DNA of 64,000 nt, taken from assembly GCF_053078305.1 (NCBI RefSeq), contig NZ_CP166875.1. The stretch is one strand, 5' to 3'. Below, piece by piece: positions 44,376 through 51,600 of this stretch (position 1 is the stretch's first letter; each line of letters starts with the position of its first letter). The translations under genes and the position numbers were made by a program. The notes beneath the pieces are model-generated. The model did no database searches and was not told the DNA's origin. It saw only the letters and a program-made list of their open reading frames with translations. This DNA comes from a plasmid.

Positions 44376-45085
44376 AAAACGAACATGAAGATCCCGGCAG
44401 TTTTGGCGAAACAACGACACCGGCATCCGGCAAATCCTTCCTGAAACGCCAGTATATGGGATACAGCCTGCCAGTCTGGGCCGGCTGTGTCCTCATCATC
44501 CTGGCCGCAGTCTGGTACAAGTTTCTGCGGACACCCTCAGAGCCCCCTGCAGATGCAGGCTTCGCTGTCACACCGCCCGCAGCCGAAAGCTGGGCAGAGC
44601 CCATGCCCATGACGGAGACCGGGAGCGGAAACACCATGTCCGCGCCTCCTGTCTCCCCACAGGCAGACATGCAGCAGCTTGCCCGTGACCTGAAAGCAGA
44701 GCTGGACAGGCGGGATGAGGAAATCCGACGTACCCTGACCATGCTGAAAGAGAGCATCACAACCCTTGGCGACACCATACGGAAAGATGAGGCCTGGGCA
44801 CAGGAAACCCGTCAGTTGCTTGATGAAACCCGTAAGCAGGTGCATGCCCTGCAGATGCAGGGACCACTGCAAATCCCGACCGGGAATAACGGCCAGTCAA
44901 CGAAAACCCCGCCTTCCCGCCTGCAGGGCATGCAAATCATGTCGGTGGAAAAAGGAATGGCCTGGATCCGCTGGCAGGGTAGCGCCTGGGCAGTACGGGA
45001 AGGTGACAGGCTGGGGAATATCACCATCACCCGGATTGAACCGTCCAGCCGCTCAGTCATCACCTCTGCCGGTACATTACGATGA
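44372..45085 (+). CDS. membrane-anchored transfer protein (TraP position)
   Basis: 237 aa, single TM segment, coiled-coil region; start overlaps previous stop. Confidence 0.4.
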   Translation: MKNEHEDPGSFGETTTPASGKSFLKRQYMGYSLPVWAGCVLIILAAVWYKFLRTPSEPPADAGFAVTPPAAESWAEPMPMTETGSGNTMSAPPVSPQADMQQLARDLKAELDRRDEEIRRTLTMLKESITTLGDTIRKDEAWAQETRQLLDETRKQVHALQMQGPLQIPTGNNGQSTKTPPSRLQGMQIMSVEKGMAWIRWQGSAWAVREGDRLGNITITRIEPSSRSVITSAGTLR

Positions 45086-45612
45086 TGAGCATTGATGCCC
45101 TGACAGCCATAGAGAACTTTGCCAGCGGTATATTCAGTGCAGGCATGGAGTTTCTCTTCACCTGGGGAGAGCTGCTGGGGATTATCGGCCTGATTGGTCA
45201 TCTGATGCGTGCCCGGGCTGAAGGGCGTCACAGTATGGGACCGGGAAAATTTATCGCCGGTATCGTCATCTGCGGCATGCTGGTCGCCCTGCCATCCTTC
45301 ATCAATGCCGGGGGTACCCAGATGGGATTCAGGGCAGATTCCTTCGGCCCTATCGCTTATGTACAACCAACCACCTTTGGTGCCGCTGCCGGTGCCGCCA
45401 ATGCCATGCTCTCACTGGTAAAACTGGCCGGAGTGGGGTTTGCCATGAACGGCATTTCCATCTGGCGTAAATCCCTGCTGGACGGGCATACCGCCCTGAG
45501 CAGCAGTGAGTCCATCAGCAAAGGAAACGTCAAGTTTGTTGCCGGCGTTCTGCTGGTTTTTATCGATCGCGTCATCGATGCCTCTCTGGCGAGTCTTGGT
45601 CTCGCCTTCTGA
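45082..45612 (+). CDS. integral-membrane transfer protein (TraQ position)
   Basis: 176 aa, several hydrophobic segments; overlapping start/stop. Confidence 0.4.
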   Translation: MMSIDALTAIENFASGIFSAGMEFLFTWGELLGIIGLIGHLMRARAEGRHSMGPGKFIAGIVICGMLVALPSFINAGGTQMGFRADSFGPIAYVQPTTFGAAAGAANAMLSLVKLAGVGFAMNGISIWRKSLLDGHTALSSSESISKGNVKFVAGVLLVFIDRVIDASLASLGLAF

Positions 45613-45658: not shown

Positions 45659-46057
45659 ATGTCACGATTCCGTGCCATGGCGGCGCGTCTGTGCGCTGCA
45701 TTTATTTATGTTCAGTTATGCCTGGTGGCCTGCCGTGATCGGCTGATACGCCTGTTACTTCTGCTTCCCGTGATACTGCTGCCCCACACAGCGATGGCAA
45801 ACACCCTATTCGATATGATCAAAACCGTTGGCGATGGTGCAAAAGGCTCCAGCAGTTCATTTGTGGCTATCGGTCAGGTTATTGGCCTGGTGCTCTTTAT
45901 CGGCGGCCTGCTTGGCCTCAAACAAATCGGTAAAAAACCCGGTGCCGGGCTGGCCTGCCTGCTGTCAATTCTGGTCGGCCTCTGCCTTGCCGTCGTACCG
46001 GAACTGATGGGTAGCGGACAGAAAACGCTCGGTCTTTCTCCGGTTTCAATCAGTTAA
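45659..46057 (+). CDS. small integral-membrane transfer protein (TraR position)
   Basis: 132 aa with hydrophobic segments. Confidence 0.4.
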   Translation: MSRFRAMAARLCAAFIYVQLCLVACRDRLIRLLLLLPVILLPHTAMANTLFDMIKTVGDGAKGSSSSFVAIGQVIGLVLFIGGLLGLKQIGKKPGAGLACLLSILVGLCLAVVPELMGSGQKTLGLSPVSIS

Positions 46058-46113
46058 TCCGCAAAGGCACCGGGAAACCGGTGCCGTCTTCACACAATGA
46101 GGAGGACCAGACC

Positions 46114-46365
46114 ATGTCCTGTGAGCTGCCCCCTTTCACCCTGCTCAGAACAGAGCACGGCAACGTGATTGCCCGCGACAACCGGGATAATCAGGAGTTT
46201 GTGTTTGCAGAATGTTATTCCACCGCCATCGCAGCACTGATTCTGGCTGCCGTCACCCTGTATACAGAGAGAAAAACGTATGAACAAAACACCGCCACTC
46301 ATCGCCCCGGTCCGGGAACGCTGGCTTTTCCCGCTCCCGCAACCGGACACGGTATTCAGCGGTGA
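46114..46365 (+). CDS. small membrane protein (TraS position)
   Basis: ATG 46114 with strong GGAGGA Shine-Dalgarno; one TM segment; its 3' end overlaps the next ORF by about 86 nt. Confidence 0.3.
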   Translation: MSCELPPFTLLRTEHGNVIARDNRDNQEFVFAECYSTAIAALILAAVTLYTERKTYEQNTATHRPGPGTLAFPAPATGHGIQR

Positions 46366-47098
46366 ATCCCTGCTGCCACCACCAGTGCTCTCAACACCCG
46401 GACGCTGTCCCTGCTGTCGCAGGACCGTCACTCACCGCTTCATTCTGGAGGATTCATGGCCATTACAGCAGATGGCTGACACCTGCCGGGATACGGTCGT
46501 CCTGCTGGAAAAAAACCTCACCCGGGTGATGCGCCTGAAAAAACATCCGGTACCGGAAAATGCTGACGAAAAAAAGAAACACACCCGAACCCTGCAGGAT
46601 GCGGAGCGGTCCCTGGCACAGGCCCGCCTGTCGGCCAGGCGACTGGCCCTGCGTCATGTGGAAAAGTCACAAATCGTCACAACAGATGCACTCAGCGAAA
46701 ATGAAAGTGAACTGCTGCAGCCGGAAGGCCCGCCCTTTCATCTCTGTGCCTTCTGCCACGCCTGGCACTGCCTGAACGGCTACGCTGCCGCACAGGGGGT
46801 GATGGTCTGGCTCCCTGATTTGCATCCGGCCTCGGTAGTTGCTCTCAATGCACGGGCACTGAAGGAAATTTTCAGCGATGAGCGTAAGCGAGTCAGACAG
46901 GGACGGGCCGTACTGAATGCCCTGGTACAGAACCGCCTGGCCGTTGAGGAGAAATTTCGCACCTGGCGTCCGGCGGATTTTGCTGATGCACTGCGCCGCT
47001 GGCCGCCGGCACAGCGTAAAACGTTGAGGGAGAAAATGGACGGGGTGGCGCTCATTCTGCTGCCGGATTCGTTTCCTGACAAAAAGTACGTCATGTGA
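46280..47098 (+). CDS. Cys-rich transfer protein (TraT position)
   Basis: 272 aa with CPCC and CAFCHAWHC cysteine clusters; start uncertain (could be ATG 46469). Confidence 0.4.
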   Translation: MNKTPPLIAPVRERWLFPLPQPDTVFSGESLLPPPVLSTPGRCPCCRRTVTHRFILEDSWPLQQMADTCRDTVVLLEKNLTRVMRLKKHPVPENADEKKKHTRTLQDAERSLAQARLSARRLALRHVEKSQIVTTDALSENESELLQPEGPPFHLCAFCHAWHCLNGYAAAQGVMVWLPDLHPASVVALNARALKEIFSDERKRVRQGRAVLNALVQNRLAVEEKFRTWRPADFADALRRWPPAQRKTLREKMDGVALILLPDSFPDKKYVM

Positions 47099-47156: not shown

Positions 47157-47516
47157 ATGGATACACACTCTGCCGGATATCAGTTCACTGCAGATTCATT
47201 CCGGCGTTTTATTATACGGACGCTGACTGACAATATTCCGCCTGACGGAGATGAAAAAGAAATTGCCCGGTTCATTCTCCGCCACCCGGCATTTAACGGC
47301 GGCTGGCTGCTCTTTCTGGCTGCAGAAATTCATGAAAGATCCCGTACCCATAAAAGCATCACCGTCACAGTGAGCGTCGATAACTATCTCTCATGGATGG
47401 ATATTGCCGTATCCGGTCTCCCGGAATTACCGGATATGCCCTTCTGTGATTTTTTCATTCGCCGCCAGCAGTTTATCTATCCGGGTGTGCCCCCGACAAA
47501 ATCAGGAGAAGAATGA
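47157..47516 (+). CDS. hypothetical protein
   Basis: 119-aa ORF in the tra array. Confidence 0.3.
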   Translation: MDTHSAGYQFTADSFRRFIIRTLTDNIPPDGDEKEIARFILRHPAFNGGWLLFLAAEIHERSRTHKSITVTVSVDNYLSWMDIAVSGLPELPDMPFCDFFIRRQQFIYPGVPPTKSGEE

Positions 47517-47896
47517 TGAAAATTCACCGCATATCCCCGGAGATGCTTATAACACTCATCCACGCACACCTGGCCGGAAAAACTGACAGTACCGCCAAAG
47601 AAGAGCACCGGCTACTCCGTCGTTTCCTGCGGGATGATGACGGCAGGCTGGCCGGCGTACTGCTGAATATTGCCGGAATACTTCAGTTCAACAGGGAATT
47701 AAGTGCGCGGCATAATTATCCGGCCACACCCCTGACTGAATTTTCATTAAGGAAACGGGGAAAACAACTTCATCTCTGTCTCTGCAGTCTCCGTTTCTTT
47801 TATATTCCTCCGGTATTTATACAAAACAAAAGAAGAAAATCTATTGTTGTACATCTTAATAAGATCACTTATAAACAAACCCATTCAATACGCTGA
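47513..47896 (+). CDS. hypothetical protein, 3' end replaced by AT-rich insertion
   Basis: 127-aa ORF whose first ~75 codons have normal GC while the 3' part runs into AT-rich DNA (from ~47740). Confidence 0.3.
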   Translation: MMKIHRISPEMLITLIHAHLAGKTDSTAKEEHRLLRRFLRDDDGRLAGVLLNIAGILQFNRELSARHNYPATPLTEFSLRKRGKQLHLCLCSLRFFYIPPVFIQNKRRKSIVVHLNKITYKQTHSIR

Positions 47897-48414
47897 CGAA
47901 GTGATTCATACTGATTATACTCATCTTTGCCTATATGTTTTTTAAGCGTATTAACAATATCATATTGAGGATGTCCTGAATTGTCAGTATACAGTGTTGT
48001 TGCAGGAAGGACTGCATAATCTGATATTTCACAACCTGTATACAGTTCTTTGTCAGTTCGGCAGGAATGGCAAAGAGAAAGACATGTATACAGGTCTGTG
48101 TTTTCTGCCTCCTCAGGAGATAACCACGACACATATTGCAAATCATCTGTATCAGGATAACAATTTTCTTCCTGAACCTGAACTCTGAAAATATAGAAAA
48201 ATAATTCATCTTTTGAAAGGCATGCTATTTTATTCCCCCAATGCACCGCATTATCAAGTTGATCCGATAAATAAATCCATCCTGGTGTCGTCTCTAACGA
48301 CCAGCATATAACAGAAGGAGCATCAGTTCTTATTTTCCCATCTTTTATTATTTGCAGACCTCTGCTCATTGTTGTCGCATGAAAAAGATTTAATATTTTA
48401 TTTTCAGCCTTCAC
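47869..48414 (-). CDS. opposite-strand protein in AT-rich cassette; possible ADP-ribosyltransferase-fold enzyme
   Basis: 181-aa ORF; N-terminal LFHATTMSRGLQIIKDGKI resembles the H-G/A-T motif region of Tpt1/KptA-type and ART-fold proteins (weak, from memory). Confidence 0.45.
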   Translation of the reverse strand: MKAENKILNLFHATTMSRGLQIIKDGKIRTDAPSVICWSLETTPGWIYLSDQLDNAVHWGNKIACLSKDELFFYIFRVQVQEENCYPDTDDLQYVSWLSPEEAENTDLYTCLSLCHSCRTDKELYTGCEISDYAVLPATTLYTDNSGHPQYDIVNTLKKHIGKDEYNQYESLRQRIEWVCL

Positions 48415-48483
48415 TCTATTTCCTCATTTCCCAAGAAACATATTAAAAACGGAAAACATTACACATAACCTGGAGGACAAATC

Positions 48484-48576
48484 ATGACTTTAAATTTCCC
48501 TGCCGGGGAAACTACACTATTCTCAGCAAAAAACATCCTGACAGCAATACTCACTCTGCACAACTTACACGCATAG
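48484..48576 (+). CDS. 30-codon small ORF with strong RBS upstream of the traU-like gene
   Basis: GGAGGA Shine-Dalgarno 8 nt before ATG 48484; MTLNFPAGETTLFSAKNILTAILTLHNLHA-stop; not in ORF track (<60 aa). Confidence 0.2.
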   Translation: MTLNFPAGETTLFSAKNILTAILTLHNLHA

Positions 48577-48614
48577 CGTTCCCATTTGAATACAGTTGCA
48601 GCCCGCGATTTATT

Positions 48615-51600
48615 TTGTCTTCCGGAGCCACCTCTGCCATGAATATCAACCGCATTATTTTTGCCATTGAAGACTGTATCAGTACCCTGTCACGGTATTC
48701 CGTTTCCGCATTCTTCCCCGATTACTGTGATCTGCACACCGTCATCGGTCTGGACCAGCAGGACCGCGAACGCCGCCCCTGGCTGAAAGCCCCCTACATT
48801 GCCACCACAAAACAGGGGTATTACCTTTCCGTCTTTGAAATCAGCGGTGCCCTGAAAGAAATGGATGAAAACCCGGACCTGACAGCCCCCGGCACACTGG
48901 AATCACTGATTACAGCGCTGGCAGAGCGAATGAACACTGCCTATAAAAACACCGGTCACAAAATCAGTTTTGTTTTCGAACGCGATCCGGAGCGTGGAAG
49001 GGATGAAATCGAAGCCATGCTCTTACCCCAGCGAAAATCCATCGCACGCACGGGGATCCTGCTTCAGGACGTTCTGGATGAAAAAGTCACCACGCTCACC
49101 CCCTGGCTTGTCCGGGAACGCTGCTGGCTGACCGTCTGGAGCTCTGAAGAACTGCTGAGCCGGACCGATCGCAAGGACCACCAGACCCGTATCAGGAAAC
49201 TCGCTGAACACGCTCCGCCAGCCCGATTTGCGCAGGATCCATGGCGCTGGACACTTTCCGCACTCAAAATACGGCATGACGCCTTTCTGGACACGCTGGA
49301 GCAGGCCCTGACACATGATTCTGATGGTCTGCTGGTTCGCCTGATGGATATTCATGAAGTGGGACGGGAAATCCGCCGTCAACTGGAGCGCAACAGCACA
49401 CCTGCAGTATGGCAGCCTCATCTGCCTGAAGATGCCCGTCCTGCCGGCTGGCGACAGGGCGAGGATACCTCTGTATTCCACGCACCGTCGCTGAATCTGC
49501 AGTTATTCACCACACAGCCTGAAACACACGGCAGCCTGATAAAGGCCGGTGACCTCTGGCACGGTATGGTCGCCATTACCCTGCCACCCCAGAATCTGCG
49601 GACATTCAACCAGCTGGTCAGGGATGTGCCCCGCGCAATCCCCTGGCGTATCCGGATGGATCTGATGCCCGGCGGCATGAAGGCGCTTGGGGTCAAGAAA
49701 ACCCTGCTGACCTACAGCAGCTTTATTTCCCCTCTCCGGCCCATGTATGACTCGGTGATGATGCTGAATGACATCAACAAACATGATCCGGTCTGTATCA
49801 TGACCATTGTTGCCACCACATGGGGAAACAGCCGGGAAGTCTGTACCCGCAACCAGGCTCTCCTGAAATCTGCGCTGGAAGGCTGGGGAGTATGCGGCAC
49901 CACCACCACCTTCGGTGATCCGAGACGTGCCTGGGTGAACACGGTTCTGGCGGCCTCCCACGGTTCCGGTCCAGTCCCCCTTTACCCGCCCCTTTCACAC
50001 GCCCTTTCCCTGTTTCCCCTGAACAGGGCCGGCTCTGTCTGGCGGGGACAGGGAAATCTGATGATGCACACCGAAGACGGCTCTGCATGGGAGGTCGCGC
50101 TGGCATCGTCACAACAGAACAAGCACACGGAACTGACGCCCGGCGCACCCGGTCTGGGCAAATCGGTACTCATCAACGCACTGTCGGAGATCCAGATAGC
50201 CTCAGCCCAGAAGAACCTGCCTTTCATTGCCTATATCGACAAGGGATTCAGTGCACAGGGACTGGTACAGCTTATCCGTGACAGCCTGCCGGAGCAGAGA
50301 AAGGACGAAGCCGTGGGGATCATTCTGAGCAATGATCCGGAACACACCCGTAACCTGTTTGATGTGATGTACGGTGCTAAAAAACCCGCCACCCCGGAAA
50401 AGAACTTCATGGTATCTGTACTCTGCGCACTGTGCGTGGATACCGGCACCGGTCAGCCCTGTAATCCCGGTGACACCCGGCAAATCATAAGCAACCTGGT
50501 GGATCTGGCCTTCAGGGAGTATGGCGAAAACAACCCCAGACTGTACCGTGCAGGAACAGAGCCCCTTGTGGATCTCGCCCTGGAAGAGAGTGGCATCGCA
50601 GAACAACATGACGCTGGATGGTGGAATGCTGCCACCTGGTTTGAAATCAGGGACATGCTGCATATGGCTGGCAATATCCCCGCAGCCCAGCGGGCACACT
50701 ACCAGGCCATGCCCCTGCTGGCTGAAATGTCCGCCCTGCTGGGACAGCCATCCATCCGGGATGTGTTCGGCACAGTTCAGCGCGATAACTCAGCAGAATT
50801 GTTACTGGACTACATCCGCCGTGCCCTCGATCAGGGACACAGTGACTACCCGATGATGTCCGGCTGTACCCAGTTTATGCTCAGCCCCGACACCCGCGTC
50901 GTGGCCGTTGATCTGAACAATGTGGCCGGTGACAAGACACCTGCCGGGCGTCTGCGCACCGGCATCATGTACCTGCTGGCAGGACAAATCGCCGGAGGGG
51001 ATTTTGTCCTGCCGCAGTATCAGGAGGAAATACGGAAAAATCTCGACCCACGCTACCATGAGGTGATTTTCCGCCGCATTGAACAGCTTGATCAGGAGGT
51101 CAAGACCAAAGTCTATGACGAACTGCACAATGCAAAAGGGATCAATTTCATCTGGGAAGCCCTGGACACCCAGGAGCTGGAGCAGCGTAAGTTCGGGATA
51201 CGCACAGTGCTGAGCACCCAGCTATTGCAGGACTATCCACCGGCAGTTCTCAAATCCGCCAACACCCTCTGGTTGCTGCGTTACCGCCCTGACGAAATTC
51301 CGTTTCTGCGGGATAATTTTGGTGTCCCTGAAGTCACCCTGCGGCGCTTCCTGAAAATGCCGGAAGGGGCTGCACCGGATGGCAGCGGTGTCCCGGTACT
51401 GGCGGTGTTCCGTGTAAAAAACGGTACGCTGGCCCGGATCCTGAAATTCACTCTCGGTCCACTGGAGCTGTGGGCACTGAATTCCTCACCCAAAGACAGC
51501 GCCCTGAGACGTGCGCTGACGCAGGAGCTCGGGTCACTGCGGGCACGCCAGATCCTGGCAGAAAACTTTCCCCGTGGTTCAGCCACCTCACTGATAGAAC

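Follow-up and report, generated by a model that had tools for sequence, protein, structure and literature searches.

The transfer genes traS and traT overlap by 86 nt in the window, the term used here for the whole stretch of plasmid DNA that was analysed (64,000 nt). They are very probably two separate genes: traT starts from ATG 46280, traS has lost its stop codon in the B/O/K/Z group of plasmids, and the C-terminal tail of TraS that results is unconstrained. The overlap does not stem from a sequencing error in the window, and it looks like a real yet incidental, harmless by-product of the lost traS stop codon. An earlier note on this DNA had described an 83-aa ORF with a strong ribosome-binding site (ATG 46114, end 46365) and a 272-aa ORF that can start at 46280 in another frame, with an overlap of about 86 nt. 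This observation was confirmed, the overlap being exactly 86 nt (46280–46365), and the first interpretation given with it was partly supported. The suggestion of a genuine or programmed overlap holds insofar as the overlap physically exists and has become fixed in the lineage; programming is not supported, as the overlap is lineage-specific and bears no sign of selection in the traS frame. The label of traS/traT positions was correct, since GenBank and RefSeq records of 100% identical DNA name the two ORFs TraS and TraT. The layout of the junction is as follows.

46114–46365, plus strand: traS, from ATG 46114 to TGA 46363–46365, 83 aa (ORF list and raw sequence).
46280–47098, plus strand: traT, from ATG 46280, 272 aa, a predicted DotN/IcmJ-fold protein, in the +1 frame relative to traS.
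46280–46365, plus strand: traS/traT overlap, 86 nt, in which traT codons 1–29 coincide with traS codons 56–83 and the stop codon.

The plasmid carrying this locus belongs to the I-complex (IncK2/Z, B/O-like). DNA 100% identical to the locus was found by megablast against PLSDB in many conjugative plasmids of E. coli, typed as IncK2/Z, MOBP and MPF_I. These records annotate traQ, traR (DUF6750), a TraT of 272 aa and, as TraS or "hypothetical protein", the 83-aa ORF; the 86-nt overlap has already been drawn by PGAP, and both ORFs are already present in RefSeq. A blastn search returned 444 plasmid records that match the junction with coverage of at least 80% of the query and 90–100% identity, and these records constitute the B/O/K/Z group as understood here. 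About 1,400 IncI1-type records match the junction at about 69% identity.

The traS/traT junction was inspected in eight lineages. Wherever traS is present, traT is read in the +1 frame relative to it. Outside B/O/K/Z, the traS stop is a TAA formed by a codon pair of the type xxT AAR within traT codons 4–8, and the overlaps are short: 17 nt in IncI1 L003, L010 and L005, 23 nt in L017 and 14 nt in L008 and L020, with TraS proteins of 62–64 aa in these relatives. In three further lineages, L009, L018 and L019, traS is absent, and traT, with the same N-terminus and a good Shine-Dalgarno (SD) sequence, directly follows traR. Conservation of the long overlap across lineages was thus not found, the overlap being 14–23 nt in four other lineages and traS being absent in three. 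The plasmids of the IncI1 group (R64, ColIb-P9, pESBL type) have the same gene order traQ-traR-traS-traT as the window, and in both the traT frame is +1 relative to traS and traT opens with an ATG that falls within the end of traS. The IncI1 TraS, however, has 62 aa and ends with a TAA 17 nt into traT, TraT has 266 aa, and traU comes immediately next. In the window, TraS has 83 aa, the overlap is 86 nt long, TraT is longer by six N-terminal codons, its SD is weaker, and three additional ORFs part traT from traU.

The difference between the lineages lies at the traT start. The first ten or so codons of traT are poorly conserved, and in B/O/K/Z they differ from those of the relatives and are accompanied by the six extra codons. 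They contain AAC AAA or AAA AAG instead of xxT AAR, the traS frame receives no stop, and traS runs on to a TGA within GGT GAA, traT codons 28–29. The ancestral state would be the one that IncI1 and several other lineages retain, with the TAA of traS embedded in traT codons 4–8 and an overlap of 14–23 nt. Divergence of the traT start in B/O/K/Z would have removed the embedded stop, because the diverged sequence holds no xxT AAR. Ribosomes translating traS would then stay in the +2 frame of traT until they meet the next chance stop, which is the TGA in GGT GAA. The additional 26 or so TraS residues would form an unconstrained, probably disordered tail carried as a neutral passenger, and the sequence evolution of the overlap would be governed by traT alone.

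After loss of the stop, an open traS frame of 86 nt or more is expected in about 27–28% of cases, according to the stop density in this frame and to synonymous resampling of the traT codons; the length of the overlap therefore requires no special explanation. The 83-codon traS ORF and its stop were retained, and the junction was free of indels, in all 13 of the 13 haplotypes that cover the traS stop. Stop loss that lengthens an upstream gene at its 3' end gives rise to a recognised class of long co-directional overlaps (Palleja et al. 2008, PMC2478687); in the model of Fonseca et al. (2014, PMC3887535), which the junction also fits, such overlaps arise most often by 3'-elongation. By the classification of Palleja et al. 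(PMC2478687), the junction matches category iii: the genes are co-directional, the overlap exceeds 60 nt, the upstream gene is extended at its 3' end and the downstream gene has normal length. Unlike the typical case, the extension is not a one-off sequencing or annotation error and occurs in every B/O/K/Z haplotype examined (13). It is a well-documented instance of a known overlap class, and nothing suggests a new mechanism.

Substitutions were compared among about eight distinct haplotypes (complete plasmids and metagenome contigs) differing by no more than 5%. Events were counted as distinct site changes; the sample is small, with 14 events in the overlap. The counts were distributed as follows.

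46114–46279, traS only, traS frame: 6 synonymous and 3 non-synonymous changes; 1, 1 and 7 at codon positions 1, 2 and 3; 0.054 events per nt.
46280–46362, overlap, traS frame: 1 synonymous and 13 non-synonymous changes; 0.17 events per nt.
46280–46362, overlap, traT frame: 8 synonymous and 6 non-synonymous changes; 3, 2 and 9 at codon positions 1, 2 and 3; 0.17 events per nt.
46366–47095, traT only, traT frame: 44 synonymous and 21 non-synonymous changes; 13, 8 and 44 at codon positions 1, 2 and 3; 0.089 events per nt.

The two frames differ inside the overlap (Fisher p = 0.013), and the traS frame differs between the overlap and the traS-only part (Fisher p = 0.005), whereas the traT ratio in the overlap is no different from that in the rest of traT (Fisher p = 0.54). 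No other stretch of the region is as variable as the overlap; its density of changes exceeds that of both flanks, which is the opposite of what a double constraint predicts. In this small sample, purifying selection in both frames of the overlap was not seen. The traS stop and positions 46330–46366 were invariant in the sample; this fits a constraint from the TraT PLPQPDTVFSGE motif, and the end of TraS may be constrained as well. On the whole, the substitution evidence is supportive of an unconstrained tail. The independent short-read assemblies L021–L023 all end at one point inside the overlap (about 46291 of the window), which suggests branching of the assembly graph between co-resident or recombinant variants of I-complex plasmids.

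The signals preceding the two genes are listed below.

46066–46087, plus strand: GC-rich stem-loop, GGCACCGG-GAAA-CCGGTGCC, between the traR stop, which it directly follows, and traS.
46100–46105, plus strand: traS Shine-Dalgarno sequence AGGAGG, 8 nt before ATG 46114.
46267–46271, plus strand: SD-like GAGAG of traT, weak, with an A-rich 8-nt spacer before ATG 46280.

For traS, the duplex with the anti-SD has an energy of -12.3 kcal/mol at ATG 46114 versus -5.1 kcal/mol at the alternative start GTG 46081, which falls inside the stem-loop. For traT, the pairing was -3.6 kcal/mol at ATG 46280, +1.4 kcal/mol at GTG 46385 and -1.5 kcal/mol at ATG 46472, and the value of -3.6 kcal/mol is the weakest among the traT homologues compared (others from -5.8 to -11.5). 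Folding predicts no structure for the region of the traT start (z = +1.57), and a promoter and terminator scan of the junction gave nothing beyond the shuffle expectation. The stem-loop has a fold energy of -18.3 kcal/mol (z = -2.9) and a weakly U-rich tail. Stem-loops of different sequence occupy the equivalent place in IncI1 L003 (1109–1135), Pectobacterium L008 (about 648–671) and the traS-less L019 (about 862–889); the structure after traR is conserved and the sequence is not. This element may be an intra-operon attenuator or an element of mRNA stability.

Among the other explanations, the best surviving one, though improbable, is that the long overlap is functional, either through a role of the TraS tail as a young overprinted peptide or through tuning of the TraT output by coupling or occlusion. 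It draws on the contrast between the very strong SD of traS and that of traT, the weakest of its family, on the retention of the 83-codon ORF with its stop in all 13 haplotypes, and on Tn-seq of the IncI1 plasmid pESBL, in which traS and traT were both scored as required for transfer (PMC4288162). The latter result may mean that TraS is weightier than the R64 data suggest, or may reflect polarity on traT. One version, in which the stop loss was co-opted so that ribosomes that start strongly on traS and cross the weak traT ribosome-binding site and the first 29 traT codons set the TraS:TraT ratio by occlusion or coupling, or in which the new Pro/Gly-rich tail is a functional young overprinted peptide, has a slim chance of being right. 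These proposals are opposed by the substitutions, 13 of the 14 in the overlap being non-synonymous in the traS frame and variation exceeding that of the flanks, and by the tail itself, which is predicted to be disordered (AlphaFold pLDDT below 50 for residues 63–83). Moreover, the long overlap is missing from all other lineages, some of which are without traS, and the unstructured traT start would need no unmasking.

The geometry bears on coupling as well. In the relatives, with the stop 14–23 nt past the traT ATG, the spacing would permit termination-reinitiation, which calls for an upstream stop within a few to about 25 nt of the downstream start; here 83 nt separate the ATG from the traS stop that follows it, and for this reason termination-reinitiation coupling is unlikely in the window. 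RNA folding around the traT start gave no occluding structure that traS translation would have to open, and coupling through mRNA unfolding is therefore not indicated. Given the weak traT SD, a dependence on traS translation could make the overlap functionally relevant. Under the preferred reading, an incidental overlap after stop loss, traS would be strongly initiated at ATG 46114 (-12.3 kcal/mol) and translated through to 46365, yielding a small accessory protein. Initiation of traT would be independent, at 46280, from the weak GAGAG in an A-rich leader predicted to be unstructured, and translation of traS may assist it. We infer that both ORFs are translated as drawn, that the TraS tail is functionless and that traT is initiated via its own weak SD.

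A second alternative, that traS is a decaying or non-expressed remnant and traT the sole functional gene, so that the overlap would be purely notional, is improbable as well. Passages of PMC4288162 and PMC6112013 cite traS as dispensable and traT as essential in R64. The gene is also missing from several related transfer regions and unannotated in some records. No significant family match was found for TraS or for TraT in the Pfam, NCBIfam and PADLOC scans, and the fold search with the TraS model returned no meaningful match (best E about 1). The core of TraS nevertheless shows the marks of a maintained gene. Within the lineage, its codons 6–51 carry 5 synonymous and 0 non-synonymous changes, and the consensus AGGAGG and the ATG have been kept. 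The family has a conserved core of about 50 residues, with 19 invariant positions in 20 sequences and 54–65% identity across lineages. AlphaFold modelled residues 1–55 with confidence as four beta-strands and a helix (pLDDT 81–92 for residues 1–50).

The layout of TraS follows the same division, with a conserved core at about residues 1–51 and a lineage-specific read-through tail at about residues 56–83. The core is 66% identical to IncI1 TraS over residues 8–51 (E = 8e-20), and homologues outside B/O/K/Z (55–65 aa) stop where the tail of the window TraS begins. Judged by these alignments, the core is assigned to the IncI-type TraS family and the C-terminus is taken as a lineage-specific extension. 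In size, the window TraS departs from the IncI type (55–65 aa, TAA 14–23 nt into traT), having 83 aa, a TGA and 86 nt of overlap. A cluster of 59-aa "TraS" sequences (P0078) was considered as a natural premature-stop variant and rejected, the sequences being contig ends.

The existence of the overlap depends on where traT begins. If translation began past it, at GTG 46385 (TraT Val36) or at the internal in-frame ATG, the two genes would not overlap; such a late start is very unlikely. The earlier note had placed the internal ATG at 46469, which is wrong; its actual position is 46472. The features concerned are the following.

46472–46474, plus strand: internal in-frame ATG, TraT Met65, rejected as the start codon.
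46406–46417 and 46745–46756, plus strand: the CxxC pairs C43/C46 and C156/C159 of TraT, invariant in 46 sequences.

The database search found 70 TraT homologues, most of them bearing the name TraT, and 46 full-length ones, down to 44% identity, were aligned. The IncI1 TraT (266 aa) aligns with the window TraT from residue 11, with 61% identity over 261 of 272 residues (E = 2e-123). Seven residues before Met65 are invariant in the 46 sequences, namely P20, D23, G41, C43, C46, S59 and L62, and seven further N-terminal positions are at least 90% conserved; P20 and D23 fall within the overlap. A start at 46472 was rejected, as it would lose all 14 of these, including the C43/C46 pair, together with the WLxPLPxPD motif. 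Inspection of the sequence between 46280 and the codon of the conserved W15 gave no alternative ATG, GTG or TTG. In the traS-less lineages, the homologues begin at the equivalent position behind a good SD, and residues 11–60 are modelled at pLDDT 84–93 as part of the fold. A late start does have some annotation on its side: the equivalent of 46472 is annotated in L025 and L027, gene callers shorten traT on L011 and L012, and the SD at 46280 is weak. The conserved N-terminal residues, the lack of a nearer alternative start and the best anti-SD pairing at 46280 are nonetheless the reasons for which the later start was rejected. The suggestion that the second gene starts at the internal ATG is refuted by the conserved residues upstream of Met65, and in the alignment the homologues did not begin there. 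Some RefSeq records with near-identical DNA do annotate the internal start, and we consider these annotations to be mis-calls. The N-terminal TraT peptide expected from the ATG 46280 start is MNKTPPLIAPVR.

Least likely of all is a frameshift, whether a sequencing error or a real mutation that split one gene or a programmed +1 event yielding a TraS-TraT fusion: fused TraS-TraT proteins occur in databases (P0080, P0082, P0069) and A-runs lie near the junction, but in the fused proteins a further A-run carries a second frame error or segments are scrambled, and the assemblies from which they derive are error-prone, complete plasmid records have no indel at the junction, no slippery site conserved between lineages was found, and every lineage examined has either traT alone or both ORFs with traT at +1, which disposes of the idea of one gene split by a frameshift. 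The fused or odd-length TraS and TraT proteins (P0068, P0069, P0080–P0083, P0006, P0055) were rejected as frame errors at A-runs. The intact homologues were all either separate TraS and TraT proteins or TraT alone.

In Legionella pneumophila, DotN (IcmJ) is one of the subunits that make up the type IV coupling complex of the Dot/Icm system. The AlphaFold2 model of TraT, built on the homologue alignment, has a mean pLDDT of 91.5 and a fold that matches DotN (PDB 5X1H, 5X42, 6SZ9), with 17% identity in the structural alignment. TraT differs from DotN in an additional long helical hairpin (residues 60–123). PDB sequence and profile searches with TraT returned chance matches only, and the relation to DotN is visible only at the fold level. 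By its model, TraT is a DotN/IcmJ-fold subunit, presumably belonging to the type IV coupling complex. Together, the residues C43, C46, C156 and C159 resemble a Cys4 metal site, and a start at 46472 would take away half of this putative site. The protein has the properties of an IncI-type TraT, i.e. R64-type homology over its full length, the DotN fold and the operon position, traT lying after traR (and traS where present) and before traU, as in the identical-DNA and IncI1 records. A literature statement equating R64 TraT with DotN was not found; the only comparison found concerns Orf38 of IncL/M plasmids and DotN. The IncL/M plasmids carry orf38 in place of traS-traT (PMC6112013), and a preprint likens orf38 to DotN by structure (10.1101/2025.01.23.634512). 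The DotN fold of TraT agrees with this likeness, and so do the tblastn matches of the C-terminal half of TraT at 30–32% in Klebsiella plasmids.

The main value of these results concerns annotation, as RefSeq records of the same DNA disagree, with three traT starts and two traS starts between them. Some records start traT at 46280, and L025 and L027 use the equivalent of 46472 despite the intact upstream ORF. In pHUSEC411like, the A-run at 46569 has lost 1 nt, which truncates traT. The start of traS is placed at GTG 46081 in one record, and the gene is unannotated in another. Near-identical DNA is also annotated differently among the RefSeq records L001, L024, L026, L028 and L029, the records L025 and L027, and the records L004 and L007. 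Gene callers applied to metagenomes routinely shorten traT to avoid the overlap. The comparative evidence places traT at ATG 46280 and traS at ATG 46114, and the 46280 start preserves the N-terminal CxxC pair and the WLxPLPxPD motif of TraT. The junction is also a clean, population-fixed case of a co-directional overlap of more than 60 nt formed by loss of a stop codon, and such overlaps are usually dismissed as annotation errors.

Two further observations concern the neighbouring transfer genes. TraQ (45082–45612) and TraR (45659–46057) each match Pfam DUF6750 (E = 2e-10 and 1e-23, respectively), and traQ and traR therefore appear to be paralogues. Between traT and traU (47157–48414), three additional ORFs are found, of 119 aa and 127 aa on the plus strand and of 181 aa on the minus strand, with no Pfam, NCBIfam or PADLOC matches for any of the three. 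The minus-strand ORF sits in an island of 34–41% GC versus 53–60% in the flanks, with a GC trough at 47800–48700. The three-ORF block is missing in IncI1 and in some B/O/K/Z relatives (L004, L006), and for this reason the traT-traU interval appears to be a hot-spot for the insertion of variable cargo within the transfer operon.
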